DNA from: Escherichia phage vB_Ec-M-J
Sequence record: OQ718158.1
Reading direction: 5' to 3' (one strand)
Length of the DNA: 64,000 bases
A model generated the notes under the pieces. It ran no database searches. It saw only the letters and a program-made list of their open reading frames with translations, and was not told the origin of the DNA. Below are positions 1-11,230 of this stretch, piece by piece (the first letter of the stretch is position 1; each line of letters opens with the position of its first letter). Both the position numbers and the translations under genes were made by a program.

Positions 1-70
1 AGTAGGCAGAGGAAGTCTGCCGTACTTTGTAGTTTCCAAGCTCCTTTTCCATTTTGCAAATTACATCAAA

Positions 71-98
71 TGTAATCAAAAGTAATCAAAAGTAATCA
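71..98. repeat. tandem ~10-bp direct repeat (A)AGTAATCA(A) x3
   Basis: tgtaatcaaa/agtaatcaaa/agtaatcacg read directly. Confidence 0.6.
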
Positions 99-375
99 CG
101 CAATGATTAGTACTGAATTATTACTTTCACCTTAATTTCAATTACCCCTTTACCCTTCGGGGTAAAATTCCATTACCCCTTGAGGCTCCAGCAAAAAGTT
201 GGTTAGTACTCCATCCTAAATCTCGATCCTAAAAATTTTGGAGTACCTATGAAATAAAAGTTGGATCTTCGAAATTTGAAATTTACGTTGGGACGTTTAT
301 GATTTGTGGGATATAATGATGTTTGTAGTCGGGTAGTTTTCAAGAATATCAGCACTGAATAATGAAAGAAAGCTA

Positions 376-403
376 TTGACATTATGATTCAGTACTGTAT
401 AAT
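376..403 (+). promoter_or_regulatory. sigma70-like promoter in left non-coding region
   Basis: TTGACA-16-TATAAT followed by GTTCTACATAGGG (same downstream box as early promoters). Confidence 0.5.
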
Positions 404-731
404 GTTCTACATAGGGTGATGAGTTGCTGCGAACAATTCATTTACTCTACCTCCTGTCGTGAGACAGTACAGAAAAGATAGTTCCTCCTGTGGTGGTACA
501 TCTTTTTGAACCTCATATGAAAATCGTAATAACAGTACTGATATTAACAGAATGGTGTCAGTACTGATTTTAATCTAAAGCATTATGCCACCAGCACAAG
601 CTGGTGGATTCCCTCTAACAGTATTCAGTACTACATGATGGTCTTCATCCTCCTAGGGTAACATAGTGAGGGCTATGATGGCAGTACTGAATACTCCCTT
701 TCAAAAGATAGATCTATGGTATAGTACTGAC

Positions 732-920
732 GGATTTTGGGCGTAGTTACCCTGGATGGATTTTGGACGTAGATATGTCTAGCCCTCCAGAAGTCTGGAA
801 GTAAAGATGGCTATCCATCTAGACGGCTAAACGGCTAGATTTCTGGATGGCTAGATGGCTAGACGTTTGGACGGCTAAACGGCTAGATGGTTACACGTCT
901 GGAAGTATAGACGGCTAAAT
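732..920. repeat. iteron-like cluster of short direct repeats
   Basis: GGATTTTGG(G/A)CGTAG x2; GTCTGGAAGTA x2; ACGGCTAAACGGCTAGAT x2; GGCTAGATGGCTAGACG. Confidence 0.6.
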
Positions 921-1355
921 CAAAATTTTATTTTGTTTTTCCAATAGTTCCCCTACCGCGTGGGGATAGTTTCCCCGCAGTATCTGGAGTTAGATTTTTC
1001 TGAATCTGGAATCATTATCTTATAAACTGGGGGCAATGTCAACGACCTGGACGGATATTTTTAAAAATTTTTTCAGTACTGAATTTTGGGCGTAACTATG
1101 CACCCGGTGGGCTTGAGTCTTTCTCGACTTGATGGAACTATTATACAGTACTGAAAAAATAAAGCAATACCCTGGAAGCAAAAAAGTTTTAATTAATTTG
1201 CTTGCTATCCTGGGCCGGACTATGGTACTATATTTCAGTACTGAGAAAGTGCGTTTACCTGCTAGGGTGCGGGAGTGTATCCTTTTTTTATATCTTGAAT
1301 TTTGGGCGTAATTCCGCACCCTCTGGGGTTTCCGCTTTCTCGCGTCTATGTAGTA

Positions 1356-1383
1356 ATTATACGCTTTTTCAGGATCAAGTCAA
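1356..1383 (-). promoter_or_regulatory. candidate leftward promoter
   Basis: minus strand TTGACT-16-TATAAT; transcribes toward a GCACCC..GGG box. Confidence 0.35.
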
Positions 1384-1676
1384 TACCTAAAAACAAAATA
1401 ATTGAAAATAATTTAACGCGTTTAAACGGCCCGTAAAGCCCTGGAATGATTGGAATGGTGCAAATGTATAGCTTAGGTGTATTAATGCGTTAGAATGCGT
1501 CTGAGGCCGTTTTACGGGGTATAGGGATGATTTGGTGGATTGATTCAGTACTGAATGATAGTACTACTATATAGAAAGATAGTTCCCCTGGATGGTTGCA
1601 GTACTGAATGATAGTACTGAATAATAGTTCCCCTATATAGAAAGAAAACTATTTTAAAAGTATTTGTAGAAAGTAC

Positions 1677-1734
1677 TTGCAAACTAAGTTTAACGGCGTA
1701 TAATGTTTTACATCGAGAGCGGGAACACTTCCCG
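1677..1734 (+). promoter_or_regulatory. early promoter + 5' stem-loop
   Basis: AAAGTACTTGCAA-16-TATAAT-GTTTTACATC then hairpin GCGGGAAcacTTCCCGC. Confidence 0.65.
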
Positions 1735-1759
1735 CTACATATTACGAGAGATTAAAACG

Positions 1760-2122
1760 ATGGCGACTCAAATCACTAAAATTATTGCTAACCTGGTTAA
1801 CTTTCGCGACGAGATGAAAGATCTTCCGGCAGAAACGGTAAAAATTCACATTTCAGCTTATCGGGAACTTATTGCAATGTTACCGCTTAAGCGTGAACAA
1901 TACGCCGCGACCGTGATGCTTGATGCGATGATCCATAAGATGATCGCCAGTGATTTAACGATGGTTTATCAGTATATGGGCGAAAATTTCGCGGTGTATA
2001 GTAAACCAGTACCAGGAATGGAAAGTACAGAAGTATTACACGGTTTAAATTTAAAACAAGATGCATGGGATAATATGCCTCGTTTCCTGGTATGGGCTGA
2101 CAGTGGCAAGATTTACGAATAA
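1760..2122 (+). CDS. hypothetical early protein (120 aa)
   Basis: ORF in track frame; start moved to ATG after RBS GAGAG; track start 1703 lies in promoter -10. Confidence 0.65.
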   Translation: MATQITKIIANLVNFRDEMKDLPAETVKIHISAYRELIAMLPLKREQYAATVMLDAMIHKMIASDLTMVYQYMGENFAVYSKPVPGMESTEVLHGLNLKQDAWDNMPRFLVWADSGKIYE

Positions 2123-2136
2123 GTTTTAAAAAGTAC

Positions 2137-2196
2137 TTGCAAACTAAGTTTAAAAGCGTATAATGTTTTACATCAGGTGGGGAATAGTTCCCCACT
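2137..2196 (+). promoter_or_regulatory. early promoter + 5' stem-loop
   Basis: TTGCAA-16-TATAAT-GTTTTACATC; hairpin GTGGGGAAtagTTCCCCAC. Confidence 0.65.
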
Positions 2197-2216
2197 ATAA
2201 TTAAGAGATTAATTTC

Positions 2217-2450
2217 ATGAGTACTATTTTAACTGTTTCTCAATCCGTTGCACTGACTGACCTATTAAACGCTTTAAGCCGTTGCACTGAGGTTGGCTTG
2301 TTTGATGTGGTAGACGTTGCACCGGACGTTATTAATCATTTTTGTGATGCGATGGAAGAATGTAAGGAAGATGATAGCCGTATGATGGCGGTCGCCTTTG
2401 AGGAAGTACAACCAGGTGAGATCAAAGGTTTACCAGTACTGAAAAAATAG
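2217..2450 (+). CDS. hypothetical early protein (77 aa)
   Basis: track ORF; own promoter and RBS. Confidence 0.65.
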   Translation: MSTILTVSQSVALTDLLNALSRCTEVGLFDVVDVAPDVINHFCDAMEECKEDDSRMMAVAFEEVQPGEIKGLPVLKK

Positions 2451-2453
2451 TAC

Positions 2454-2512
2454 TTGCAAACTAAGTTTAAAAGCGTATAATACTTTCTATCAGGTGGGGA
2501 ATAGTTCCCCAC
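2454..2512 (+). promoter_or_regulatory. early promoter + 5' stem-loop
   Basis: TTGCAA-16-TATAAT; hairpin GGTGGGGAAtagTTCCCCACT. Confidence 0.65.
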
Positions 2513-2532
2513 TATATAAGAGGATTTAAAAA

Positions 2533-2772
2533 ATGGCTAAATCAAAAATGTTCTTAGGTCACAAAAACAAAACTCATTGGAATGTAAGCCTTTGGATTAA
2601 TAACGATGAGTCATTGTACCGGTTGGCCCAGGACTTTATTAACGATAGCACTAATCGCAATGATGCGGCCCGTCATATGATGTTATTTTTAGAACAGACT
2701 GGACAAGATAAAACACCGGACGGATTCAAATATAGCACTACTGCGATCCGTGCGGCGATGGTTGGAATGTAA
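2533..2772 (+). CDS. hypothetical early protein; paralog of 4636..4875
   Basis: track ORF; shares HKNKTHWNVSLWINN...TPDGFKYSTTAIRAAMVGM with 4636 gene. Confidence 0.7.
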   Translation: MAKSKMFLGHKNKTHWNVSLWINNDESLYRLAQDFINDSTNRNDAARHMMLFLEQTGQDKTPDGFKYSTTAIRAAMVGM

Positions 2773-2798
2773 TAGAATAGAATTTATTTAAAGTACTA

Positions 2799-2823
2799 TT
2801 GCACGGGGATAGTACTTTATAAT
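2799..2823 (+). promoter_or_regulatory. degenerate promoter (short spacer)
   Basis: TTGCAC-13-TATAAT; the homologous element at 15302 has an intact 17-bp spacer. Confidence 0.3.
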
Positions 2824-2860
2824 AGTGTTTTATTCATACACCAACGATAAGGGCAACAGC

Positions 2861-3127
2861 ATGAATATTAAGTATTTTGCGACGCGTGAACAAGCTCGGA
2901 TCGCCGCACGGCAGGACGGGGCAACGTTTAAAGATATGGGCGTACAATCGGAACGTGGTAAACGTTGGGCCATTGTAAAGCGTAGTACCGCCAGATCATT
3001 ACAGTACTGGTTAGCGGCCTTAAAAAGTCCCGATAGTGTATCGCGTCGAGTGGTAGAAATAAAGCTCGACCGAAAGGGCAACCGCGTGACTGTGTACCGT
3101 ACTAAAAAGATTGCAGTACTTGAATAA
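2861..3127 (+). CDS. hypothetical early protein; paralog of 15375..15770
   Basis: start moved to ATG after RBS AAGGG; shares KYFATREQARIAAR...RKGNRVTVY with 15375 gene. Confidence 0.6.
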   Translation: MNIKYFATREQARIAARQDGATFKDMGVQSERGKRWAIVKRSTARSLQYWLAALKSPDSVSRRVVEIKLDRKGNRVTVYRTKKIAVLE

Positions 3128-3134
3128 AAAGTAC

Positions 3135-3193
3135 TTGCAAACTATGTTTAATGGCGTATAATGTTTTACATCGAGAGCGGGAACACTTCCCGC
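3135..3193 (+). promoter_or_regulatory. early promoter + 5' stem-loop
   Basis: TTGCAA-16-TATAAT-GTTTTACATC; hairpin GCGGGAAcacTTCCCGC. Confidence 0.65.
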
Positions 3194-3214
3194 CTATAAC
3201 CTGGAGTAATAAAA

Positions 3215-3445
3215 ATGACTAATATGTATATGACTGAAGTTAAAACCGTAAAAGATACTACCACGAATAAAACTACTTACTTACAGCGGATCTGCGGTGT
3301 ATGGCAACGTATCAGCAAATCAAAGTACTTTAAATTAACATCATATGCAAACCGTTCGGATTCATTCAGTACTGAAATAAAAGGTAATAAAGTACACCAA
3401 TACGGCACTTATTATTATTATAGCCTGGACGCGATTGCAGTCTAA
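3215..3445 (+). CDS. hypothetical early protein (76 aa)
   Basis: track ORF; promoter + RBS GGAG. Confidence 0.6.
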   Translation: MTNMYMTEVKTVKDTTTNKTTYLQRICGVWQRISKSKYFKLTSYANRSDSFSTEIKGNKVHQYGTYYYYSLDAIAV

Positions 3446-3475
3446 GCAGTTTACAAATCTTTACAATTGCCGGTA

Positions 3476-3504
3476 TTGACTTATTTTGTCAGTACTGGCA
3501 TAAT
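3476..3504 (+). promoter_or_regulatory. sigma70-like promoter upstream of conserved box
   Basis: TTGACT-17-CATAAT. Confidence 0.5.
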
Positions 3505-3536
3505 GTATTCATTGGCAGATAAGCCGTAGCCCATAG

Positions 3537-3565
3537 GGTGCGGGAGTGTATCTATAGAAAAATTA
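3537..3565 (+). promoter_or_regulatory. conserved ~29-bp box (TAGCCCAyAGGGTGC..GTGTATCTAT)
   Basis: one of about 10 copies in the window, always 25-50 bp downstream of a promoter. Confidence 0.5.
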
Positions 3566-3567
3566 GT

Positions 3568-3600
3568 TTAGTACAGTTACAATTGTGCACCCGGTGGGTT
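3568..3600 (-). promoter_or_regulatory. inverted copy of conserved box
   Basis: reverse complement of GTGCACCCGGTGGGTTAGC matches the box. Confidence 0.45.
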
Positions 3601-3619
3601 AGCTGTTGTCATGGGGTAT

Positions 3620-3648
3620 ATTATGCCAGTACTTGATAATGCTGTCAA
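3620..3648 (-). promoter_or_regulatory. leftward promoter convergent with 3476 promoter
   Basis: minus strand TTGACA-17-CATAAT. Confidence 0.45.
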
Positions 3649-3693
3649 TACTTTTTTAATATTCAGTACTGAAAACTATTTTTAAAAAGTACT

Positions 3694-3720
3694 TGCAAAC
3701 TATGTTTAAAGGCGTATAAT
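3694..3720 (+). promoter_or_regulatory. early promoter (no immediate hairpin; long leader)
   Basis: TTGCAA-15-TATAAT-GTTTTACATC. Confidence 0.6.
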
Positions 3721-3810
3721 GTTTTACATCAGGACGGGGAACGAAATAAGTAACTTCCCGTTAAGTAGCCCAGGAGTAAGGCACACGAAAAACTCCCCTG
3801 ATAAAATAGT
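3721..3810 (+). promoter_or_regulatory. structured ~90-nt leader, duplicated at 14175..14262
   Basis: CAGGACGGGGAACGAAA.AAGTAAC..CCCGTTAAGTAG.CCAGGAGTAAG...AAAAACTCCCCTGATAAAATAG nearly identical in both copies. Confidence 0.5.
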
Positions 3811-3838
3811 TTGACAATTGTTTTTAAAAGCGTATAAT
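3811..3838 (+). promoter_or_regulatory. second (tandem) promoter before 3871 gene
   Basis: TTGACA-16-TATAAT. Confidence 0.5.
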
Positions 3839-3870
3839 ACTTACATCAACTACTGAATGAGGGTTACAAA

Positions 3871-4545
3871 ATGAAAACTATCACTACTACTACTTTCGTT
3901 ATGGATTTTTCTGAATTGAATGAGGGTTGCAAAGCGAAAACTGTCACTAATACTACTTTCGTTATGGATTTTTCTGAATTGAACGCAGAACAAAAAACGT
4001 CAGCTATCGAACTGGTTCGGGAACGTGAAAAAAACTTAAACGATGATTATTTTTCTGAAAGTGAAATTGAATACTATAAAGAAACAGTACTACCGGAATA
4101 TGGCATTAATGACGCTGAAATACAATTCAGTGGTTTTTGGTCCCAGGGTGACGGTGCATCAATCAGTACTGACCACGTTGACGCAGTGAAGTTTTTACGC
4201 AAGGTAAGAGCATTAACTAAATATCGCTCAATCCGTCACTTGCTGAATGAAGATGATTTGGCGATGAGTGTAAAGCGTTCTCACTCCCACTACTCGCATG
4301 AGAATACTGTAAGCGGGTACATTGAATCGGCTTACACTGATTTAACCGCAAAACAAGAAACGTTAGTTAATGAGCTTGAGGAACTACTCACTGAAACTAT
4401 TCGTGAATTATCCCGCAAGTTGTACCGTGATTTAGAGAATGCATATGAGGATCAATTCACTACTGAAAACATTACGGCACTGATTGAGGGTAACGAATAT
4501 CAATTCAATGTTATTAATGGCGTAGTAGAATCAATCGAATATTAA
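3871..4545 (+). CDS. hypothetical protein (224 aa) with N-terminal tandem duplication
   Basis: track ORF; TTTFVMDFSELN(E/A) repeated twice near N-terminus. Confidence 0.7.
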   Translation: MKTITTTTFVMDFSELNEGCKAKTVTNTTFVMDFSELNAEQKTSAIELVREREKNLNDDYFSESEIEYYKETVLPEYGINDAEIQFSGFWSQGDGASISTDHVDAVKFLRKVRALTKYRSIRHLLNEDDLAMSVKRSHSHYSHENTVSGYIESAYTDLTAKQETLVNELEELLTETIRELSRKLYRDLENAYEDQFTTENITALIEGNEYQFNVINGVVESIEY

Positions 4546-4557
4546 TTTAAAAAGTAC

Positions 4558-4619
4558 TTGCAAACTAAGTTTAAAGGCGTATAATACTTTATATCGAGGC
4601 GGGGAGTGGTTCCCCGCTC
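4558..4619 (+). promoter_or_regulatory. early promoter + 5' stem-loop
   Basis: TTGCAA-16-TATAAT; hairpin GAGGCGGGGAgtggTTCCCCGCTC. Confidence 0.65.
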
Positions 4620-4635
4620 AAACGAGGATTAAAAA

Positions 4636-4875
4636 ATGGCTAGTACTAAAACTTACAACGGGCACAAAAACAAAACTCATTGGAATGTTTCCTTATGGAT
4701 TAATAACGGTGAGTCATTGTATCGGCTTGCTCAAAGTTGCATCGCACAAAGTAGAACTAAAGATATTGCTGCGGAATGTATGTACCGCAGATTAAAAGCC
4801 AACGGTACTACTACAACGCCGGACGGATTCAAGTATAGCACTACGGCGATCCGTGCTGCAATGGTTGGAATGTAA
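4636..4875 (+). CDS. hypothetical early protein; paralog of 2533..2772
   Basis: track ORF; conserved N- and C-terminal blocks with 2533 gene. Confidence 0.7.
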   Translation: MASTKTYNGHKNKTHWNVSLWINNGESLYRLAQSCIAQSRTKDIAAECMYRRLKANGTTTTPDGFKYSTTAIRAAMVGM

Positions 4876-4895
4876 TATTCAGTACTGTAACAATG

Positions 4896-4920
4896 GCGGG
4901 GAATGGTTCCCGCCTTTATT
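4896..4920 (+). terminator. hairpin + T-rich tail (terminator or 5' stabiliser)
   Basis: GGCGGGGAAtggTTCCCGCC then TTTATT. Confidence 0.45.
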
Positions 4921-4933
4921 GAGGGTTTATCTA

Positions 4934-5194
4934 ATGAGTAAAGTAATTAGCTATACAGTACTAAGCAAGTCATTATCTATTAGCCAGTGCACCGATGGTT
5001 ATTGGCTATTTGATGAAACGCGTGGAATGAATTTAGCTATGCGTGCAAAAACTGCTGAGGCGGCGTATCTTGAGGCACTGGAATACTACCAGGAACGTTT
5101 AACGGAAGTAGAAGAAGATTATAAAAGCCTCAAAGCGAAAGTAGATCATTTCGTCGGTCAATTCATCGAGGAAGACGACGACAAACAATATTGA
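4934..5194 (+). CDS. hypothetical early protein (86 aa)
   Basis: start moved to ATG after RBS GAGGG; track start 4853 runs through the hairpin. Confidence 0.55.
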   Translation: MSKVISYTVLSKSLSISQCTDGYWLFDETRGMNLAMRAKTAEAAYLEALEYYQERLTEVEEDYKSLKAKVDHFVGQFIEEDDDKQY

Positions 5195-5203
5195 AAAAGT
5201 ACT

Positions 5204-5261
5204 TGCAATTAGTTTTAAGTACTGTATAATGGTTTACATCAAAGGGAGAAATGGTTCTCCC
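5204..5261 (+). promoter_or_regulatory. early promoter + 5' stem-loop
   Basis: TTGCAA-15-TATAAT; hairpin GGGAGAAatggTTCTCCC. Confidence 0.65.
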
Positions 5262-5280
5262 TGGTAATGAGGAAAATAAA

Positions 5281-5502
5281 ATGGCTAATATCACTACTCT
5301 TTCCCAACTGGAAGCACTGGTTAAATCTATGCGGGAACATGCCGACAAAATCGGCGTACAAGATCCAGCCGTTTGCTTCTGCGACGAATTGAATGATGAT
5401 ACCCTGGTAATAGCAGAAGTCCAGGACGTTTCTAACTATTCCTCGCGTTACACTGGCGGCGTAGCAAATAAAGGTGACTTCTGTTTATACCTTACAAAAT
5501 AA
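5281..5502 (+). CDS. hypothetical early protein (73 aa)
   Basis: start moved to ATG after RBS GAGG; track start 5251 lies in hairpin. Confidence 0.6.
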   Translation: MANITTLSQLEALVKSMREHADKIGVQDPAVCFCDELNDDTLVIAEVQDVSNYSSRYTGGVANKGDFCLYLTK

Positions 5503-5505
5503 CAA

Positions 5506-5537
5506 CGCGGGGAGATAATAACTCCCCGTTACTTTTT
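5506..5537 (+). terminator. rho-independent terminator candidate
   Basis: CGGGGAGataataaCTCCCCG then TTACTTTTT. Confidence 0.5.
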
Positions 5538-5608
5538 CAGTACTGAATCATTTAATAGACGGATCTCGGCACCCGGTGGGTTAGTGACTGTTTCGTCTTG
5601 ATGTAGTA

Positions 5609-5637
5609 ATTATGCCAGTACTGGATGCACTTGTCAA
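5609..5637 (-). promoter_or_regulatory. leftward promoter reading into inverted box copy
   Basis: minus strand TTGACA-17-CATAAT; GCACCCGGTGGGTTAG downstream. Confidence 0.4.
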
Positions 5638-5670
5638 CAATTATTTTTCAAATACTTTTTATTAAAATAC

Positions 5671-5725
5671 TTGCAATTAGTTTTTAAACGCGTATAATGT
5701 TTTGCATAGGGGGAGCGGTTCCCCT
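5671..5725 (+). promoter_or_regulatory. early promoter + 5' stem-loop
   Basis: TTGCAA-16-TATAAT; hairpin GGGGGAGcggTTCCCC. Confidence 0.6.
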
Positions 5726-5745
5726 GGTAACTAAGGAATAAGAAA

Positions 5746-5982
5746 ATGGTCGAACAAATCAAATCAACGTCTTCGAATGTAACGGGAACGGTAGCACACT
5801 TTACTAGTGATGAATCGCGGGGCGTTCCCTATTGTGCTGTACATGTAAACACTGAGGGTAACTACTGGTTTACGGTTTACGGATCATATTCATTTGGACG
5901 GCCAGGGCATCAAAAAATTCTGGATAAAGTACAACCAACGGGTAAAAATATCACTGCCGAAATGTTTTATAAAAAATCATAA
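5746..5982 (+). CDS. hypothetical early protein (78 aa)
   Basis: track ORF; RBS AAGGAA. Confidence 0.6.
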   Translation: MVEQIKSTSSNVTGTVAHFTSDESRGVPYCAVHVNTEGNYWFTVYGSYSFGRPGHQKILDKVQPTGKNITAEMFYKKS

Positions 5983-5987
5983 AGTAC

Positions 5988-6046
5988 TTGCAATTAGTTT
6001 TTAGTACTGTATAATATTTTACATCGCAAGGGGGAGCGGTTCCCCC
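5988..6046 (+). promoter_or_regulatory. early promoter + 5' stem-loop
   Basis: TTGCAA-16-TATAAT; hairpin GGGGGAGcggTTCCCCC. Confidence 0.6.
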
Positions 6047-6066
6047 TGGTAACTAAGGATAATCAA

Positions 6067-6366
6067 ATGAAAATTGCAATCATCGCCCTGGCTTTATCTG
6101 TTTCCTCTTTCGCTGTTAATGCGTCATTAGATGTAAGTAGTGAAAAATTCATTCAGTGCACTGTTGCAATGACCGATGAAAGAACTGGCGAGATTGTATT
6201 AAAGGATTTAGAGATCCAGCCGGAAGCATTTAAAAACGGGCCGTTCCATGAAGAAGACGAAAAAGGTAGCACGACAATTTATTACGATGCCAGTACTAAA
6301 CGCGGTTCGGTCACTGTAATGGATACTGAGAAAGTAACTCATACTGGCGTTATTAATTGCCGTTGA
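6067..6366 (+). CDS. secreted/periplasmic small protein (signal peptide)
   Basis: N-terminus MKIAIIALALSVSSFAVNA-S looks like a Sec signal peptide. Confidence 0.65.
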   Translation: MKIAIIALALSVSSFAVNASLDVSSEKFIQCTVAMTDERTGEIVLKDLEIQPEAFKNGPFHEEDEKGSTTIYYDASTKRGSVTVMDTEKVTHTGVINCR

Positions 6367-6387
6367 TAGATACTACGGGGTAACATC

Positions 6388-6618
6388 ATGACTAAGCGAA
6401 TTGTTTTACTTAACGAAAGCAGTACTACACAACTACTTAACGCCGTGCATTATGATATTGAAACGAGCGTTAATCTTATCAGTACTGTCGTACTGTTGGA
6501 CACTGGAAAGGTCGCCAATGATAAAGCGATTGCAGGTATATTAACGGATCTTGAGCCTGGTAGCAGTGCACCCATAACGTTAAATGGTAAAGTGTTTAAT
6601 ATTTTACTCACTGATTAA
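6388..6618 (+). CDS. hypothetical protein (76 aa)
   Basis: track ORF directly after 6067 gene; RBS GGGG. Confidence 0.55.
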   Translation: MTKRIVLLNESSTTQLLNAVHYDIETSVNLISTVVLLDTGKVANDKAIAGILTDLEPGSSAPITLNGKVFNILLTD

Positions 6619-6624
6619 GTACAT

Positions 6625-6650
6625 AGCCCACCTGGTGGGCTTTTTTTGTT
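6625..6650 (+). terminator. rho-independent terminator
   Basis: AGCCCACctgGTGGGCT then TTTTTTTG. Confidence 0.7.
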
Positions 6651-6701
6651 TTTGTAGTATCGTAGTACTGAGATACTTTGAAAATAGTTTTAAAAAAGTA
6701 G

Positions 6702-6729
6702 TTGACATTACCGCAGAAAAGCGTAGAAT
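6702..6729 (+). promoter_or_regulatory. sigma70-like promoter with long leader
   Basis: TTGACA-16-TAGAAT. Confidence 0.5.
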
Positions 6730-6852
6730 GTATTACATCAAGACGGGGAGCACTAAGTAGACCGCCAGTAAGTCGAACGAAAAACTGGACACGTCGAGAA
6801 AACTTTGATACACTAATAAACGTAAACTAAACTTTAATTGAGGATTTATAAA

Positions 6853-7335
6853 ATGGCTAATGTAAAATCATTCATCAAAGCACTGGTAGCAAATGAAACT
6901 AACGTCGCGGCTGAGATCCTGGCTGAACTGGATAACGATACCATGAAAGCGGTACGCAATAATTTTAACATCGCGTACAGTACTGCGAAAGAACTACAAG
7001 CAAATAAAGCGGCAGAAATTGAAGCGGCAAAGGCTGCCCGTGAAGCAGAACTACAAGCAACAATCGAAAGTATTCAGGCGGCAGTAGTTGGATTGGATCT
7101 GGAAGTAGTTACAGAGATGGCACAAAAAGCCCTGGCGGTTAAGTATGGGGAAGACAAGCCAGAAGTAAAAGCCAAAAAATGGATTCAGGAACGCGTAGCG
7201 GTAGTACTGGATAATGGGGAAGAATATCTGATTCCGGTGCGTGGTAACTGTATTGCGGTAGTACTGGACGCGATTAACGCCAGCGGTATGACTCGCGAGG
7301 AATGGATCGAATCTCATCGCAAAGTTGAAGCATAA
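6853..7335 (+). CDS. hypothetical protein, Ala/Glu/Lys-rich helical N-terminus (160 aa)
   Basis: track ORF; start moved from TTG to ATG after RBS GAGG. Confidence 0.65.
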   Translation: MANVKSFIKALVANETNVAAEILAELDNDTMKAVRNNFNIAYSTAKELQANKAAEIEAAKAAREAELQATIESIQAAVVGLDLEVVTEMAQKALAVKYGEDKPEVKAKKWIQERVAVVLDNGEEYLIPVRGNCIAVVLDAINASGMTREEWIESHRKVEA

Positions 7336-7356
7336 CAATTAAAGTACTGAATCACT

Positions 7357-7386
7357 AGCCCACTGTATAAGTGGGCTTTTTTGTGT
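7357..7386 (+). terminator. rho-independent terminator
   Basis: AGCCCACtgtataaGTGGGCT then TTTTTTG. Confidence 0.7.
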
Positions 7387-7393
7387 TTATCGT

Positions 7394-7500
7394 TTACCAG
7401 GCCACCAGCACCGCCTAGAAACGATTCTAACGTATTAAACTGTTTATCTGATGCATTGCCCTAGCTGGTGGCGTGAAGGTCGTTAGAATGCGATTGAGAG
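7394..7500. repeat. long imperfect inverted repeat
   Basis: CCACCAGC..GCTGGTGG and CGATTCTAACG..CGTTAGAATGCG arms; CGTTAGAATGCG also at ~1486 and ~11794. Confidence 0.45.
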
Positions 7501-7536
7501 CGTTTAAAGTATTTTGCAAAAAGTAATAAAAAGTAC

Positions 7537-7597
7537 TTGCACGATTAAGAGATTAGCGTATAATGTTTTACATCGAGAGGGGGAAACGGTTCTCCTT
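7537..7597 (+). promoter_or_regulatory. early promoter + 5' stem-loop
   Basis: TTGCAC-16-TATAAT-GTTTTACATC; hairpin GGGGGAAacggTTCTCC. Confidence 0.6.
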
Positions 7598-7619
7598 CCA
7601 AATCAAAGGAATCAAAACA

Positions 7620-7847
7620 ATGGCTATCGTAATCACTCGCGTAACTGGTACTACTGGCAATTCTTCTACTGTTGCTGTAATTACTAATAAGAAAGGTGCG
7701 GAATTGCATTTTGCAATGGATAAATGGGCCGTTAATGAGTTCGGTCAGTGGGCAAGTGTAGCATACATTGAAACCTATCAAGTGCCGTCGATTAGTTTAA
7801 CTGATTTGGGCGTTGAGCGTATCCTTTGCCTTGATGAATTAAATTAA
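7620..7847 (+). CDS. hypothetical early protein (75 aa)
   Basis: start moved to ATG after RBS AAGGA; track start 7563 lies in promoter. Confidence 0.65.
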   Translation: MAIVITRVTGTTGNSSTVAVITNKKGAELHFAMDKWAVNEFGQWASVAYIETYQVPSISLTDLGVERILCLDELN

Positions 7848-7853
7848 AAAAGT

Positions 7854-7914
7854 ACTTGCAAAGTAAATCGAATAAAGTATAATACATTACATCAAGGGGA
7901 GAAATGGTTCTCCC
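7854..7914 (+). promoter_or_regulatory. early promoter + 5' stem-loop
   Basis: TTGCAA-18-TATAAT; hairpin GGGGAGAAatggTTCTCCCC. Confidence 0.6.
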
Positions 7915-7932
7915 CACTACAAGGAAACTAAA

Positions 7933-8076
7933 ATGAAAACTTGTCAATGTGGTCAGAAATCTATTACGGGTTTAAAGCGGGGCGTTGCTCTTTGCCAGTA
8001 CCATTATAATTTACAAGTATGGGGTAAAGAATGGGCCGACCAGGTGGAAGCAGCAAAGAAAGCAAAAAGTAAGTAA
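7933..8076 (+). CDS. small Cys/His-containing protein (47 aa), not in ORF track
   Basis: ATG after RBS AAGGAA; CQCG...LCQYH could bind metal. Confidence 0.5.
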   Translation: MKTCQCGQKSITGLKRGVALCQYHYNLQVWGKEWADQVEAAKKAKSK

Positions 8077-8094
8077 AATATTATCACAGTACTA

Positions 8095-8123
8095 TTGACA
8101 TAGTTTGATAGTACTGGCATAAT
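8095..8123 (+). promoter_or_regulatory. class-B early promoter
   Basis: ATTATCACAGTACTATTGACA-17-CATAAT; same cassette at 8389, 11231, 11502, 19423. Confidence 0.6.
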
Positions 8124-8156
8124 AGATTTTATCAAGACAACTAAGAGGAAACAATA

Positions 8157-8369
8157 ATGGCTATCATCACAAAAATCAAAGTTAACAAATCACTGGTTAA
8201 ACTTGAACAAGTGAAAGCAGGTTATAAAGTATCGTGGTGCGGTATGTATCGGATGTTCACCGATATAGACAATGCAATCAAGTACTACACTGACACCGTT
8301 GCCTCATTCGTTCGTGCTGATGTGGTTATGGCAGTGGCAACGCACAAAGCAGCGAAAGAAAGTAAGTAA
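8157..8369 (+). CDS. hypothetical early protein (70 aa)
   Basis: track ORF; RBS AAGAGGAAA. Confidence 0.65.
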   Translation: MAIITKIKVNKSLVKLEQVKAGYKVSWCGMYRMFTDIDNAIKYYTDTVASFVRADVVMAVATHKAAKESK

Positions 8370-8388
8370 AAATATTATCACAGTACTA

Positions 8389-8417
8389 TTGACATAGTTT
8401 GATAGTACTGGCATAAT
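8389..8417 (+). promoter_or_regulatory. class-B early promoter
   Basis: TTGACA-17-CATAAT, near-identical to 8095 copy. Confidence 0.6.
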
Positions 8418-8458
8418 AGATTTTATCAAGACAACATATTAATTTAAGGAATACAAAA

Positions 8459-8782
8459 ATGGCTAAAACTATCATTAACACCGTTTCCCTGGCTGCAATC
8501 CGTGCAATCAATGTTGACGGTAAACGTTGGACTGATTCATATGGCAATACTTATCATTCTTGTCATGTAAGCGTTGAACTGGATAACGGTTTGAATGATC
8601 TGGCGGTTGAATCATTTACTTATGGCTATGAAGATGCATATCAACAAACGGCGTTATCTCTCTTAAAGGAATCAGTAGACGGGCTTAATACTGATGAAAC
8701 CTCCCTTACTCGTGTGTGCAATGATCTTAATATCCCGTTGCATTGTACTGTACAGAATGTTAAACGCAAAAAAGATCTTTAA
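8459..8782 (+). CDS. hypothetical early protein; paralog of 14956..15279
   Basis: track ORF; shares RWTDS(Y/H)GNTYHSC.VS...FTYGY...KRKKD with 14956 gene. Confidence 0.7.
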   Translation: MAKTIINTVSLAAIRAINVDGKRWTDSYGNTYHSCHVSVELDNGLNDLAVESFTYGYEDAYQQTALSLLKESVDGLNTDETSLTRVCNDLNIPLHCTVQNVKRKKDL

Positions 8783-8861
8783 TTAGCTTTACTTTATGCA
8801 GATACTTTGATATAGTGTCTGCATAGGGGAAAGAAATTAAACTACTTAAGAGGATCGTATA

Positions 8862-9131
8862 ATGAAAAATATCAGTACTTTAATCGATGCAGGTACTCAT
8901 GTTCGTCGGTCTATGGTTGCAACCAGTACTACAAAACAAGTAGCGAGCGGTTATCTTGTATTTGTGCACGATGGTAAACTCCTGGAACGTTCAATCAATT
9001 TTGATGTTAAAAACAATTGCCGTTTTATTATCTTTAAGCGTGAGCAATATAAAATTGATTTACCAGCAAAGCCCATTAGTGGGGCGTACAACGTGCAATC
9101 ATTGTTTGAACGTCAACCATACACCTATTAA
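8862..9131 (+). CDS. hypothetical protein (89 aa)
   Basis: track ORF; RBS AAGAGGA. Confidence 0.55.
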   Translation: MKNISTLIDAGTHVRRSMVATSTTKQVASGYLVFVHDGKLLERSINFDVKNNCRFIIFKREQYKIDLPAKPISGAYNVQSLFERQPYTY

Positions 9132-9182
9132 TCAAAACATCGTTAGCGGTCGATTCAGGCCGCTTATATTGGGGATTATACC

Positions 9183-9455
9183 ATGAACGTTAATCAAGTA
9201 CTGAATGAGATCGAAAGCATCATTAAACCGATGAAGCGTACTGATGCTATGTTAACACCGGAAGAATGCCGCCTTTATGAGCGTTACAGCGTCGAACAAG
9301 TCCAGGCAATGGCTATGGCTACCCCAGCCGTTAAACCGCCTGAGAATGCGTTACAGGACGTTACAGGGGATTATATCATCAATCCAGTACTAGGGAAGAT
9401 GGCTGCAATCACCGAAGATCAACAAGACTACTTAAGCCAGTACTTAAAAGGTTAA
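9183..9455 (+). CDS. hypothetical protein (90 aa)
   Basis: track ORF; RBS GGGGA. Confidence 0.55.
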   Translation: MNVNQVLNEIESIIKPMKRTDAMLTPEECRLYERYSVEQVQAMAMATPAVKPPENALQDVTGDYIINPVLGKMAAITEDQQDYLSQYLKG

Positions 9456-9460
9456 TTAAT

Positions 9461-9670
9461 ATGCTTACTGTACAGGATAAGATCGACATCTTAAAGGTTA
9501 ATATGTATGTGATTGATGCAGTACCTGGTAAAGTATTTGCCTACGATGACACCACTGTAAGCGATTTCTACTATAGCCAGGCCGTGGGGGATCTTTCTGT
9601 ACAGTCGGTTATTGAAAACGTAGTTAATGCAGCGTATGAGCATTTACTTTCAAATAGTACTTGCAATTAG
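9461..9670 (+). CDS. hypothetical protein (69 aa)
   Basis: track ORF; 3' end runs into next promoter -35. Confidence 0.5.
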   Translation: MLTVQDKIDILKVNMYVIDAVPGKVFAYDDTTVSDFYYSQAVGDLSVQSVIENVVNAAYEHLLSNSTCN

Positions 9671-9720
9671 TTTTTAAACGCGTATAATGTTTTACATGAA
9701 GGGGAGAAATGATTCTCCCC
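9661..9720 (+). promoter_or_regulatory. early promoter + 5' stem-loop
   Basis: TTGCAA-16-TATAAT; hairpin GGGGAGAAatgaTTCTCCCC. Confidence 0.6.
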
Positions 9721-9739
9721 ACTAATTAAGGAATATGAA

Positions 9740-9886
9740 ATGAAAGCATCAAAAAAGAGTACTAACAAGAAAGCACGTTCAACCTTAGATGGGGTATTCC
9801 CTTTACGTTTCGTTGATGAAGTGGTTTCCTACCCGCCTGGCCTTACTCCTGAGATGGTAGAAAGTTTGCGTAAATCTAAAAAATAG
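9740..9886 (+). CDS. small basic protein (48 aa), not in ORF track
   Basis: ATG after RBS AAGGAA following promoter-hairpin. Confidence 0.5.
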   Translation: MKASKKSTNKKARSTLDGVFPLRFVDEVVSYPPGLTPEMVESLRKSKK

Positions 9887-9889
9887 TAC

Positions 9890-9949
9890 TTGCAATTAGT
9901 TTTTAGTACTGTATAATGTTTTACATGAAGGGGAGAAATGATTCTCCCC
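9890..9949 (+). promoter_or_regulatory. early promoter + 5' stem-loop
   Basis: TTGCAA-16-TATAAT; hairpin GGGGAGAAatgaTTCTCCCC. Confidence 0.6.
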
Positions 9950-9967
9950 AATAACAGGAGAAACAAA

Positions 9968-10120
9968 ATGAAACAATACAACGCTCGGTTTGATGTTACT
10001 ATCGGTAACGGCAAAGGTCAATTCTCTTTCAGTACTCGCAAAAGTTATACAGAAAACTTCCTGCGTAATTGTGCACTGACCGCCGCACAAATTAAACATT
10101 ACTTTCAGGCTAAAAAATGA
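9968..10120 (+). CDS. hypothetical small protein (50 aa)
   Basis: start moved to ATG after RBS AGGAG. Confidence 0.55.
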   Translation: MKQYNARFDVTIGNGKGQFSFSTRKSYTENFLRNCALTAAQIKHYFQAKK

Positions 10121-10206
10121 AATCATTAGCTTACTATAGTTCTGCGGTGATCGGTGCATTGATCGCGGCGTTGTTAGTAACCTATCTATTCTTTATGGTG
10201 ATTTAA
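10117..10206 (+). CDS. small hydrophobic peptide (29 aa, one predicted TM helix)
   Basis: ATGA overlap with upstream stop; MKSLAYYSSAVIGALIAALLVTYLFFMVI. Confidence 0.4.
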   Translation: MKSLAYYSSAVIGALIAALLVTYLFFMVI

Positions 10207-10350
10207 ATGAATCCAACAGGTTTAAACTATAAAAGTTGTTCGGCGTTTACGAAAGCAAATAAAGCGAATGCACGTAAAGCGAAAGTACAGGAATACATCA
10301 AGCAAGGCATGACGCGAAAAGCGGCGATTATAAAAGCTAAAAATAAATGA
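10207..10350 (+). CDS. small Lys/Ala-rich basic protein (47 aa)
   Basis: ATG immediately after upstream TAA. Confidence 0.4.
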   Translation: MNPTGLNYKSCSAFTKANKANARKAKVQEYIKQGMTRKAAIIKAKNK

Positions 10351-10440
10351 AAAAAGTGGTTGACTCCGGTCAGCCATTTTGCTATTATATATTCATTGAG
10401 AGATAGCTCACTAGCCCACAGGGTGCATAAGTGTATCTAT
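10351..10440 (+). promoter_or_regulatory. composite element: terminator-like hairpin overlapping promoter, then conserved box
   Basis: AAAAAGTGGTTGACtccgGTCAGCC; TTGACT-17-TATTAT; TAGCCCACAGGGTGCATAAGTGTATCTAT. Confidence 0.55.
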
Positions 10441-10481
10441 TATATGAGTATTGAGTACTGAAAACTATTTTTAAAAAGTAC

Positions 10482-10541
10482 TTGCAAACTATCTCAATAA
10501 GCGTATAATGTTTTACATCGAGAGGGGGAAACGGTTTCCCC
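10482..10541 (+). promoter_or_regulatory. early promoter + 5' stem-loop
   Basis: TTGCAA-16-TATAAT-GTTTTACATC; hairpin GGGGGAAacggTTTCCCC. Confidence 0.65.
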
Positions 10542-10561
10542 TGGTAATAAGGAAACAAATC

Positions 10562-10903
10562 ATGACTATCTCAATTGCTCAATCTAACTTTGAAAATGAA
10601 ATCATCGCCCAGGCACTGCGTTTAAATGATGGTCGGGCCGAAATTAATTACGGTTTCAATTCAGGCGGTTGCGAAAACTATCAGTACTTTGTAACGGCTG
10701 ATGGCGGTGTCCTGGGTATCAATACAGTTATTGTAAACATCCAAAAAATTAATTTCAATGATCCAGACGATAGCCAGTTTTACATCACTGGCGTAGACGT
10801 GAACTATGAGGATGACTCACTAACTGATGATCACACTGGCGAGCGGTTAGAAAGTGCATACGGTGAAGATGATTATCAGTCCGGTCCAGAAGATTTCGAA
10901 TAA
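10562..10903 (+). CDS. hypothetical acidic protein (113 aa)
   Basis: start moved to ATG after RBS AAGGAA. Confidence 0.65.
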   Translation: MTISIAQSNFENEIIAQALRLNDGRAEINYGFNSGGCENYQYFVTADGGVLGINTVIVNIQKINFNDPDDSQFYITGVDVNYEDDSLTDDHTGERLESAYGEDDYQSGPEDFE

Positions 10904-10916
10904 TATAAAAAATAGT

Positions 10917-10976: not shown

Positions 10977-10998
10977 ACTAACAGAGAGAGAAAACAAA

Positions 10999-11211: not shown

Positions 11212-11230
11212 AAATATTATCACAGTACTA

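Follow-up and report, generated by a model that had tools for sequence, protein, structure and literature searches.

The left end of phage T7 carries a terminal repeat, short repeat arrays, and then the strong Escherichia coli promoters A1-A3 before the first gene. The terminal redundancy of SPO1 is a host-takeover module: a long terminal repeat (DTR) with many small early genes, each with a strong host-type promoter. In the leader RNAs of lambda nut boxB and HK022 put, a short hairpin whose loop is GNRA-like and rich in purines lies a few nucleotides past a strong early promoter. Natural operators of the MetJ repressor consist of 2-5 boxes and adjoin met genes. Among jumbo coliphages, long DTRs have been described for fEgEco12 (20,993 bp, with the ends confirmed by PhageTerm and restriction digests), Sharanji (20,668 bp, PhageTerm), and G17 (~20 kb, estimated from coverage).

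We analyzed a stretch of 64,000 nucleotides from Escherichia phage vB_Ec-M-J (OQ718158.1), called the window hereafter, and focused on positions 1-1650. We give a probability of about 0.6 to the reading that this region is the non-coding leader of an Asteriusvirus DTR of about 21.5 kb and acts as a composite cis-acting control region with four layers: terminal elements, host-polymerase promoters, an 8-bp array, and CAGTACTG palindromes. The functions of these parts are what we infer. The position of the region is already published, its contents are not. Literature searches turned up nothing that describes it, the AGTACT motif, or met boxes at the ends of phage genomes.

Judged by homology to experimentally defined termini, window base 1 is the physical left terminus of the virion DNA of Asteriusvirus (PBECO4/121Q-like jumbo coliphages). 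Among 41 phage records matching at 90-98% identity, five GenBank records begin at this base: fEgEco12, whose end is confirmed, and four others. The sequence-only reading was thus correct in proposing a genome end rather than coding sequence. It had also suggested checking if 1-1650 is repeated at the other genome end, and this is the case in fEgEco12, where record comparison placed the region in direct orientation at the other end (window 1-2212 aligns to positions 353,741 onward, and also to 1-1667); the window itself stops short of the other genome end. By alignment to fEgEco12, the window DTR spans 1 to about 21,525. By the same homology, base 1 is the left DTR boundary in the replicating concatemer and the site of the packaging-nuclease cut.

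The terminus starts with a terminal box (1-21), formed by the hairpin GGCAGA-ggaag-TCTGCC (5-21) with GAAGTC at nucleotides 12-17. RAAGTC is found 12-17 nucleotides from the end in four genera (the window, Muenster, CBB, and Serratia BF), and the remaining sequence is diverged. The context of the cut, with GATATNCCACTA before it and AGTAGGCAG after it, is conserved within the genus except for EJP2, which has no recognisable first ~190 nucleotides, so the terminal box is not universal. GTAATCA repeats follow on the plus strand (65-110). Three tandem copies of AAGTAATCA had been proposed at 71-98; we found two exact copies plus TGTAATCA, as part of a 10-bp tandem repeat with 3.4 copies (65-98), and an inverted TGATTAG (104-110). 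The window presents three GTAATCA copies vs. two in relatives, and the unique DNA of fEgEco12 has two further copies that precede the cut by ~140-160 nucleotides. The terminal box (RAAGTC plus hairpin) and the GTAATCA copies flanking the cut probably mark the terminase cut site, and a role in packaging or cutting would be compatible with the conservation of the box. At the right DTR boundary (21,500-21,537), the last base of fEgEco12 aligns with window position 21,525, and the break after this position separates GGGCGGGTAACCT from TTAGCGACTTCG. CBB has the same junction of CTAAAGGnCnGTAACnn and TTAGC where its DTR is annotated to end, and Muenster has a looser version of it.

Other blocks of the leader are also shared among genera or strains. 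The block at 194-260 (AAAAATTTTGGAGTACC) contains the inverted repeat GTACTCCA/TGGAGTAC around two ATCCTAAA copies; it is nearly invariant in the A1 alignment and present in CBB, BF, and GAP32. Close to the first early promoter, the (C)AGTACTGAAT repeat cluster (1545-1632) lies upstream of it and varies in copy number among strains. The block at 1413-1520 is near-invariant in relatives. An inverted repeat had been reported there (~1425-1520), and it is weak: only CCCGTAAA/TTTACGGG and GGCC can pair, and it falls outside the 25 longest inverted repeats.

Regarding the direction of entry, plus-strand ORFs by themselves cover 81% of the window. Because nearly all genes point away from the left end, this end probably leads at infection, with host RNA polymerase engaging there first, by analogy with the T7 left end. 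The DTR puts the same sequence at both genome ends, which was counted against a left-end-first reading.

The 1413-1520 block also bears on a different reading, by analogy with T5, in which the functional copy of the region would be the one at the inner edge of the right DTR. The right DTR would enter first (a 21.5-kb first-step transfer with ~56 small pre-early genes), and the transfer would then pause in this non-coding stretch with its many repeats, as it is proposed to do at T5 Repeat Region 3. In the block, GGTGCAAATGTATAGC (1457-1472) resembles T5 direct repeat D, and GCGTTAGAATGCG..CGTTTTA (1487-1514), which recurs at window 7482 and 11795, matches T5 at ~9270-9305 with a 13/13 core plus flank; GGTGCAAAT and GAATCATTATC are further motifs shared with Repeat Region 3. 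As in T5, an untranslated and repeat-rich region lies across the boundary of a long DTR: the non-coding zone extends ~300 bp across it, and T5 Repeat Region 3 overruns its own by 270 bp. Moreover, the many small genes that fill the DTR each come with a strong promoter, and in the T5-like Vibrio phage Pontus the 8-bp array is located between a LexA-/DnaA-box segment and DRD-type repeats. However, the T5 matches are short, with E about 0.07, and they are not arranged in a mirrored order and orientation with respect to the genes. Instead of paired DnaA boxes in an IRD'-spacer-IRC' arrangement and multiple DRD, the region has no DnaA boxes and one GGTGCAAAT copy. Consensus scans for LexA, Fur, and DnaA sites returned none in window 1-1760, whereas they gave matches in T5, Pontus, Muenster, and CBB. 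This clade has no reported case of two-step transfer, and the T5 injection-stop site itself is unmapped. Altogether, we regard this reading as distinctly unlikely. Direct similarity to T5 Repeat Region 3 goes no further than motifs of at most 13 nucleotides, and we do not propose that the two regions are homologous throughout.

At the coding level, the sequence-only reading had found no RBS-supported ORF in the 1.65 kb, and our results agree. Six ORFs of 44-99 aa have no Pfam or PHROGs match. In close relatives, stops or frameshifts interrupt four of them (59, 99, 60, and 45 aa), and a fifth is of variable length. The idea that small protein genes were overlooked here draws on some automatic GenBank annotations, which put CDSs (4-6 hypothetical proteins) under the match, and on ORF 1302-1436, the sole one that is intact in good-quality relatives (8/9 sequences). 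Against it, besides the broken frames and the lack of family matches, the ORFs use TTG or GTG starts without Shine-Dalgarno, and a fEgEco12 ORF is annotated in one DTR copy and not in the identical other copy. ORF 1302-1436 itself has a TTG start without Shine-Dalgarno and lies within near-invariant DNA. The annotations of 121Q, PBECO4, A4, and BF17 leave ~1.95 kb without CDS, and G17 marks only a terminator there. Overlooked genes are, in our opinion, extremely improbable. For structured RNAs of known families, Rfam 15 covariance models gave no match in 1-1700 at E <= 1 and, over 1-24,000, only two sub-threshold chance matches, both outside the region; ARAGORN detected no tRNA or tmRNA.

Promoters on both strands, another early observation, were recovered with high scores: 12/12 at 376-403 (plus), and 11/12 at 1383-1356 and 1042-1014 (both minus). 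The total number of promoter-like sites is 10, which is not above shuffles (7.5 +/- 2.8). Promoter P1 (376-403, plus) presents TTGACA, a 16-nt spacer, and TATAAT, a 12/12 sigma-70 consensus with CAGTACTG flush against the -10 hexamer, and is conserved in 9/9 Asteriusvirus sequences. Downstream lies a candidate non-coding P1 RNA (410-609, plus), strongly folding, of 165-200 nt with five hairpins. Two CAGTACTG copies form the hairpin at 533-566, AUUUUAAUCU comes after it, and a terminator-like site was scored in this RNA; a second hairpin (590-609) has a loop that is flipped (ACAA/TTGT) among strains. CCTCCT occurs inside this RNA at 450 and 484, and a third copy lies just downstream, at 649. 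The minimum free energy is -64.9 kcal/mol vs. -46.3 +/- 4.6 for shuffles (z = -4.07), and the consensus fold is retained in A4 and EJP2, with compensatory changes in 5/53 pairs.

On the minus strand, the leftward promoter at 1009-1042 (TTGACA, 17-nt spacer, GATAAT) overlaps the invariant GGAATCATTATC, a Fur-box-like half site that also matches T5 direct repeat C. Next to it there is a convergent trio of hairpin units. Unit B1 (1070-1167, minus) combines a promoter (1167-1140, with CAGTACTG abutting TATAAT), the hairpin AGTC-GAGAAA-GACT, CCCACCGGGTGC, and TACGCCCAAAAT; its counterparts in the Klebsiella phages RaK2, K64-1, and Muenster are 67-71% identical. Unit A1 (1199-1289, plus) has a promoter with TTGCTT, a 17-nt spacer, and TATGGT, then the hairpin GTACT-GAGAA-AGTGC and CCTGCTAGGGTGC, and ends in a terminator-like stem (1264-1283) before a run of 7 T. 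Unit B2 (1290-1383, minus) converges on A1, with its promoter at 1383-1356 (11/12), the hairpin CGC-GAGAAA-GCG, CCCCAGAGGGTGC, and TACGCCCAAAAT; a U-tract terminator is absent from B1 and B2. The unit family has 11 copies, located only in the DTR, and is conserved across RaK2-like genera. Orthologous convergent pairs are located at a distance of ~1 kb from the left ends of CBB, GAP32, BF, pEa12, fHe-Yen9-03, and Muenster.

Across the family, the purine-rich loop stays the same and is closed by at least 10 different stems (a covarying GAGAAA-loop hairpin). With our own scoring script, a hairpin of at least 4 bp was found in 15/21 units, whereas shuffles averaged 6.8 such units and never exceeded 11. 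Because the MAFFT alignment of the family misplaced hairpin 1, RNAalifold returned nothing more than a weak GGGUG hairpin. The predicted strong sigma-70 promoters (P1 rightward and three leftward) and the weaker rightward A1 promoter do not lead directly into any ORF. The P1 RNA and units B1, A1, and B2 (CCCnnnGGGUGC core) are most likely early non-coding RNAs or leader elements: their structure is supported, and they are presumably expressed. The first early-gene promoter follows at 1677-1760 (plus), with AGTAC directly before TTGCAA, a 16-nt spacer, TATAAT, and a 5' hairpin; the first gene starts with ATG at 1760, and the promoter is duplicated at 2137.

For the palindrome TCAGTACTGA, about twelve copies had been claimed. 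The abundance holds and the count depends on the stringency: 4 copies are exact, 11 have at most one mismatch, and 15 at most two. The core CAGTACTG is the top 8-mer of the window, with 9 copies in 1-1650 vs. ~0.65 expected across the whole 64 kb, and its sites are conserved where the flanks diverge. It is built into ~45 DTR promoters, flush with the -35 or -10 hexamer. Within genes, AGTACT occurs 163 times vs. 48.6 +/- 5.5 in synonymous-codon shuffles, and in all three frames. The palindromes of 1-1650 are a local peak of a motif that is selected genome-wide and is part of the early promoters.

The CAGTACTG palindromes may be sites for a putative dimeric DNA-binding protein, and we considered two host proteins as readers. 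The SlmA-binding sequence GTRAGYRCTYAC requires G1, T2, A4, and G5 (PMC3020112). SlmA was rejected on flank composition: of the 258 AGTACT sites, 111 are preceded by C and only 14 by G, and no GTRAGYRCTYAC site with up to one mismatch occurs in the 64 kb. LexA was rejected as well, with the half-sites in inverted order and no pair at the 18-nt spacing of a TACTG-N10-CAGTA box.

The dense GGCTAGA block reported at 780-900 is real and corresponds to an 8-bp-periodic array at 773-916, with 18 in-phase boxes, 14 of them consecutive (805-916), and the met-box-like consensus AGACGGCT. Immediately before it, at 732-772 (plus), there are two copies of GGATTTTGG(G/A)CGTAG starting at 732 and 758, a duplication that was also seen beforehand. 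ATTTTGGGCGTA is found again at 1083 and 1299 and nowhere else in the 64 kb, and GAATTTTGGGTGTA precedes the array in CBB, BF, GAP32, and pEa12. On the other side, the sole IHF consensus match of the region, AATCAAAATTTTA, lies in an AT-rich tract (918-965) with a short CCCC...GGGG hairpin (950-965), and TTCCCCTACCGCGT is conserved across genera.

These repeats had been described as iteron-like and the region as a possible origin, and neither description was supported. As a replication origin, the 8-bp repeats would act as iterons beside an AT-rich, IHF-bound unwinding region. The IHF consensus site and the AT-rich tract do follow the array, and nearby promoters could prime replication via an R-loop. 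An iteron origin is expected to combine ~17-22-bp iterons with DnaA boxes, an unwinding element rich in AT, and an initiator gene next to them; in 1-1650 we found only the AT-rich tract and one IHF consensus. Iterons do not resemble a unit of 8 bp repeated contiguously 14-18 times, an adjacent initiator gene is lacking, the scan of 1-1760 returned no DnaA boxes (TTWTNCACA), and cumulative GC skew rises monotonically without a turn. The same type of array is also present at the termini of T7-like and T5-like phages, and T5 origins are reported near the genome centre. An origin is therefore very unlikely.

By sequence, the array resembles MetJ operators. Published scoring (PMC3228920) asks for two or more contiguous 8-bp boxes, each with at least a quarter of the consensus score and a total of at least the consensus score. 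The 14 contiguous boxes in a single phase total 105 bits vs. a 12.6-bit threshold, which places the array among MetJ operators by score. Only 0.09% of all 8-mers reach its mean box score, the longest run elsewhere in the 64 kb is 2 boxes, and 200 simulations gave runs of at most 3. Array indels in relatives are multiples of 8, and most boxes have G rather than the consensus T at position 6. However, methionine operators lie in the promoter region of a regulon gene, and here the flanks of the array contain no gene; thus, the array is MetJ-site-like DNA only, not a regulon operator.

Similar arrays are found in PGT2, NNA-G4 (where the array sits at base 1 of the repeat), Pontus, CBB, GAP32, BF, and fHe-Yen9, including DTR boundaries of unrelated Autographiviridae (T7-like) and Demerecviridae (T5-like) phages. 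MetJ is confined to five gamma-proteobacterial orders, Enterobacteriales included, and the hosts of the array-bearing phage groups belong to MetJ-carrying orders, except for XbC2 (a Xanthomonas host is listed, from an order without MetJ). The array of 14-18 single-phase boxes may be a binding platform for a host factor, for which the MetJ repressor would be the leading candidate, although we make this assignment tentatively and at somewhat less than even odds. Separately, 23 stretches were obtained when IMG/VR was scanned for five degenerate met boxes. Four of them were inspected, and each proved to be a perfect microsatellite with an 8-bp unit (GGATGGCT, GAATGGTT, or AAATGTTT), uninformative on MetJ; three of these four lie within ~200 nucleotides of a contig end.

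If host repressors are involved, the array could be a decoy that titrates MetJ as phage DNA accumulates and derepresses methionine/SAM synthesis, with its terminal position incidental. In addition to the fit to MetJ operator scoring, Muenster has Fur-box-like repeats at the same position instead (7 observed vs. 0.18 expected), and so does T5 Repeat Region 3 (4 vs. 0.07), which suggests interchangeable arrays of host-operator sites. However, several phage groups that are not related to each other have their arrays at a DTR boundary or no more than ~1 kb away from it, which argues for a role linked to the end, and a decoy with an incidental position seems unlikely. A broader proposal is possible but doubtful: the array would be a genuine MetJ super-operator, and DTR phages (T5-like, T7-like, and RaK2-like jumbo) would place interchangeable operator arrays of host global repressors at their chromosome ends, either to titrate host proteins or to draw them to the end that is entering or packaged, with the CAGTACTG palindrome marking genome and early promoters in parallel and being read by a protein. 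Under this proposal, MetJ boxes would be the type used here, by Vibrio T5-like phages, and by Drulisvirus and Ermolevavirus. Fur-like boxes would be that of T5 and of Klebsiella phage Muenster, and T5 and Pontus have a near-perfect LexA box together with DnaA boxes.

Binding of MetJ to the array would represent a new way for phages to use host regulators; if MetJ does not bind, the region is an ordinary, though unusually well-furnished, non-coding genome end. As a composite leader, it supplies testable elements on the cutting and duplication of long DTRs, the entry of a 370-kb chromosome, and the first minutes of transcription. These are the four-genus terminal box, the right-boundary sequence, the promoters, the candidate early non-coding RNAs, and the array common to T5-like and T7-like phages. 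The host group of these elements is widespread coliphages now under development for therapy.

Compared to known systems, the array shares with MetJ operators (AGACGTCT consensus) the 8-bp period, the contiguous single-phase boxes, and CTAG at box junctions, and differs in having 14-18 boxes instead of the natural 2-5, G at position 6, and no met gene beside it. T5 Repeat Region 3, a putative injection stop signal, has short motifs in common with the region, and T5-like Vibrio phages carry the same 8-bp array. However, the window lacks paired DnaA boxes and the LexA-type palindrome D, has one DRD-like copy, and holds its region at the gene-upstream edge of the repeat, whereas that of T5 is at the downstream edge.

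For lambda nut boxB and HK022 put, the likeness is an analogy only: the window units are short purine-loop hairpins just 3' of promoters. Unlike those systems, the window DTR has no boxA, no N-like protein was identified, the units are bidirectional, and several have no following gene. An rrn-type boxA, GCTCTTTAACAA, does follow the first early promoter in BF, CBB, GAP32, and fHe-Yen9. As in the SPO1 module, a long DTR holds small early genes with their own strong host-type promoters, although this likeness covers the whole DTR rather than the 1.65-kb leader, and there is no sequence relationship.

Finally, the T7 left end differs in the length of its repeat (160 bp vs. 21.5 kb here) and in its repeat unit (CCTAAAG vs. 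the 8-bp AGACGGCT), and the window has leftward promoters and small hairpin units and no phage RNA polymerase promoters. What both ends share is a gene-free leader at a fixed end, short tandem repeats by the repeat boundary, inward consensus host promoters, and genes pointing away; and two other members of the Autographiviridae, PGT2 and NNA-G4, have this very 8-bp array within the terminal repeat.

Bases 1-1700 of the window match 41 phage records at 90-98% identity (megablast), all of them jumbo myoviruses of ~350-385 kb from the PBECO4/121Q group, genus Asteriusvirus. Window base 1 is the first base of five records (BF17, CRJP21, BAU.Micro_ELP-22, fEgEco12, and E9.1) and maps to the inner edge of the 20,668-bp terminal copy of G17, a record in the opposite orientation. 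Direct terminal repeats (DTRs) of 20,993 bp were reported for fEgEco12 by PhageTerm, with restriction digests in agreement (PMC13070987); the terminal repeat is 20,668 bp in Sharanji (PhageTerm) and ~20 kb in G17 (coverage). When the window was aligned to the right end of fEgEco12, a second copy of 1-2212 ran from record position 353,741 on, and window 21,525 aligned with the final base of the record. Thus, the virion chromosome has its physical left end at window base 1, and the left DTR copy takes up the first ~21.5 kb of the window. The DTR and the 2 kb after it have a G+C of ~0.38-0.40, which falls near 23000-25000 to ~0.30-0.33 over the following ~35 kb.

The sequence-only reading had taken 1-1650 for a genome end rather than coding sequence and proposed checking whether it is repeated at the other end. 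The fEgEco12 alignment shows that it is; with termini published for relatives and its ORFs unsupported, that reading is borne out. The six ORFs of 44-99 aa in 1-1650 had no match in Pfam or PHROGs, four of them carry frameshifts or stops in close relatives, and several annotations of relatives leave ~1.95 kb without genes: 1-1650 is non-coding. In fEgEco12 the gene-free zone begins ~300 bp ahead of the DTR boundary, so the non-coding zone straddles the cut site; its pre-boundary part has GTAATCA and TTCAGTACTG motifs, as in the window leader (1-1650). All features previously listed in the leader were present, two with qualifications: the inverted repeat at 1425-1520 exists but is weak, and the "about twelve" palindromes are 11 at one mismatch or fewer, with just four exact copies. 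Earlier publications on the genus Asteriusvirus already report where the terminus lies and that there is a DTR; in the literature searched, we found no description of the anatomy of the 1.65-kb leader.

An origin of replication had also been considered. All that resembles an origin is an AT-rich tract and a single IHF consensus site, which follow the tandem repeat block at 773-916 (the 8-bp array). We found no DnaA boxes in the leader and no turn in cumulative GC skew, there is no initiator gene, and the repeat unit is unlike iterons. An origin in the leader is thus unlikely.

The left cut context, GATATNCCACTA/AGTAGGCAGAGGAAGTCTGCC (slash, cut), is kept in all but EJP2 in an alignment of nine Asteriusvirus sequences, among which the DNA immediately upstream is variable. 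RAAGTC at nt 12-17 from the left end also occurs in Klebsiella phage Muenster (DTR predicted by PhageTerm), Pectobacterium phage CBB, and Serratia phage BF, whose left ends have otherwise diverged. The right DTR boundary lies after 21525 (GGGCGGGTAACCT/TTAGCGACTTCG), and its sequence, ..CTAAAGGnCnGTAACnn/TTAGC.., is kept in CBB (CCAGTAACGC/TTAGCGAGG) and more loosely in Muenster (GGTATTAGGC/TTAGCACTT). Conservation at a fixed offset at both boundaries is the pattern that would be expected of nuclease recognition sites, and we infer that the conserved boundary sequences are putative terminase sites. GACTTC, 6-11 nt outside the right cut, is the inverse of the left-end GAAGTC, and AATGCATAGGTAATCCCTT, ~75 nt upstream of the right boundary (window 21400-21540), is conserved in CBB.

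The dense GGCTAGA block noticed earlier is real and forms a strictly 8-bp-periodic array. In the phase AGACGGCT, its unit is similar to the met box AGACGTCT, 8 bp that MetJ, the host methionine repressor, binds in tandem copies. Scored with a published weight matrix and thresholds (PMC3228920), one phase gave 18 consecutive boxes, 14 of them (805-916) above the per-box threshold and together worth 105 bits, where 12.6 would suffice for a site; the remaining phases scored strongly negative. The longest box run was at most 2 in the rest of the 64 kb and at most 3 in 200 Markov simulations, and the array mean box score is reached by 0.09% of all 8-mers.

Among strains, array length varies by multiples of 8. 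Arrays of this unit lie ~0.7-0.9 kb from the left end in CBB, BF, and Erwinia jumbo phages, and GAP32 has one too. Others occur in unrelated DTR phages, namely in T7-like coliphage PGT2 (nt 38-109), in Klebsiella phage NNA-G4 (from 2 bases before the terminal repeat through its first ~45 bases), and in T5-like Vibrio phage Pontus (15 units between a LexA/DnaA-box segment and DRD-type repeats, the equivalent of T5 Repeat Region 3). MetJ is present in five orders, which include the hosts of all array-bearing phages except one Xanthomonas-labelled record. That unrelated phages share the array would be better explained by a host factor, in the simplest case MetJ, than by a phage-specific terminase or initiator. 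The caveats are real: most units have G instead of T at box position 6, and the array is far longer than any known MetJ operator and, unlike those, adjoins no met gene. We regard it as a MetJ-like candidate site. Perfect tandem arrays of GGATGGCT, which is also one unit of the window array, are found with at least 10 copies at or near the ends of uncultivated viral contigs from IMG/VR (L040 1-80, L028 8196-8300).

Muenster has Fur-box-like repeats where the window has met-box-like ones (left end, L016 787-900, 1073-1100, and 1306), with seven sites at no more than 5 mismatches against 0.18 expected. In T5, the segment of direct repeat C and palindromes E-I holds four Fur-box-like sites against 0.07 expected; in both phages the repeats, at 3-5 mismatches of 19, far exceed what shuffles give. 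The LexA box is matched at 19/20 positions by T5 palindrome D, and Pontus and CBB have similar sites. The T5 LexA- and Fur-box-like sites lie at 231-250 and 475-540 of L007 (T5 9100-10700); we found no mention of them in the T5 preprint, which notes DnaA boxes alone. As a lead, this suggests that the terminal non-coding DNA of DTR phages may accumulate sites resembling operators of global regulators of the host. Three copies of the motif GTTAGAATGCG-N4-AG-N2-3-CGTTT lie in the DTR (1487-1514, 7482-7510, 11795-11822); at 7420-7495 the motif is paired with an inverted CGATTCTAACG. T5 has a single copy, immediately to the left of palindrome D (L007 171-205).

Promoter P1 (376-403, rightward) has perfect TTGACA/TATAAT hexamers and is kept across the genus. 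The 216 nt 3' of it fold far better than shuffles (z = -4.07), and divergent strains A4 and EJP2 retain the fold, five of its pairs being compensatory. Within it, two CAGTACTG copies pair into a 14-bp hairpin with a short U-rich run after it, possibly a terminator. In another hairpin, CCACCAGC-ACAA-GCTGGTGG at 590-609, the loop reads as its reverse complement (TTGT) in fEgEco12, G17, UE-S1, and 121Q, which implies inversion between the arms; G17 has the hairpin annotated as a terminator, yet no U-tract follows it. The anti-Shine-Dalgarno-like motif CCTCCT has nine plus-strand copies in the 64 kb, of which three (450-455, 484-489, 649-654) fall in a 205-nt stretch downstream of P1; the candidate P1 RNA contains two of these three.

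Three short units lie in region 1070-1383, one pointing rightward and the other two leftward. In each, a sigma-70 promoter is followed within a few nt by a hairpin whose loop is of the GAGAAA type, and then by an CCCnnnGGGTGC core (1111-, 1259+, 1327-). The family has 11 copies in the window, confined to the DTR and each behind a strong sigma-70 promoter; the eight further cores are at 3530+, 3598-, 5580-, 10415+, 12081+, 14068+, 17348+, and 20099+. The loop is GAGAAA/AGATAA, and CCCnnnGGGTGC precedes ..TGTATC. The hairpin covaries, with stems that differ around one loop (GCCA/TGGC, GGAG/CTCC, AGTC/GACT, ACAAA/TTTGT, TCCA/TGGA, and others), and stems reach 4 bp or more in 15 of 21 units (500 shuffles: mean 6.8, maximum 11). 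A convergent unit pair lies ~1 kb from the left end in CBB, GAP32, BF, pEa12, fHe-Yen9-03, and Muenster, and its conservation explains why 1140-1362 is the sole part still matching RaK2-type Klebsiella phages by blastn. Of the ATTTTGGGCGTA repeats noticed earlier, two are orphans ahead of the 8-bp array and the others form the 3' portions of leftward units. The unit family is kept in five other RaK2-like genomes, and no match to it was found in Rfam. We read the units as early non-coding RNAs or leader elements, their expression being putative.

Nearly all small DTR genes (1677-21000) are preceded by a consensus promoter of their own, after which come ACATC and a GC-rich 5' hairpin (for example, at 1704-1737 and 2164-2197); such promoters number ~45 in 21 kb. 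In BF, fHe-Yen9-03, CBB, and GAP32, an rrn-type boxA (GCTCTTTAACAA or GCTCTTTAAAAA) lies ~1.4-1.5 kb from the left end, after the first AGTACTTGCAA early promoter and a small hairpin, which suggests that early transcripts of these relatives may undergo Nus-dependent antitermination. We looked for boxA in the window's DTR and found none.

Across the whole window, AGTACT is the most over-represented hexamer (258 sites against ~22 expected) and CAGTACTG the most over-represented octamer (57 against 0.65). Palindrome density per kb is 5.5 in 1-1650, 1.4 in the remaining DTR, and 0.5 in unique DNA. Genes contain 163 AGTACT sites, spread over all three frames, ~3x the 48.6 +/- 5.5 given by synonymous-codon shuffles; the motif is thus selected at the DNA level. 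The palindrome sites stay fixed amid diverging flanks in the Asteriusvirus alignment, and AGTACT is also abundant at the left ends of the other genera compared. AGTAC abuts the -35 hexamer in 24 DTR promoters, and CAGTACTG abuts the -10 hexamer in 19. The flanking bases rule out SlmA, which recognizes a site built around AGTACT; next to the core, a preceding G and a following C are under-represented. As reader of the motif, our best guess is a dimeric phage protein that works on early promoters.

Three features merit experiments: the MetJ-like array, which several phage families share; the promoter-driven hairpin units found throughout the DTR; and the CAGTACTG signal that extends across the genome. 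Altogether, the 1.65-kb leader is best regarded as a variation on the terminal control regions known from T7 and T5.
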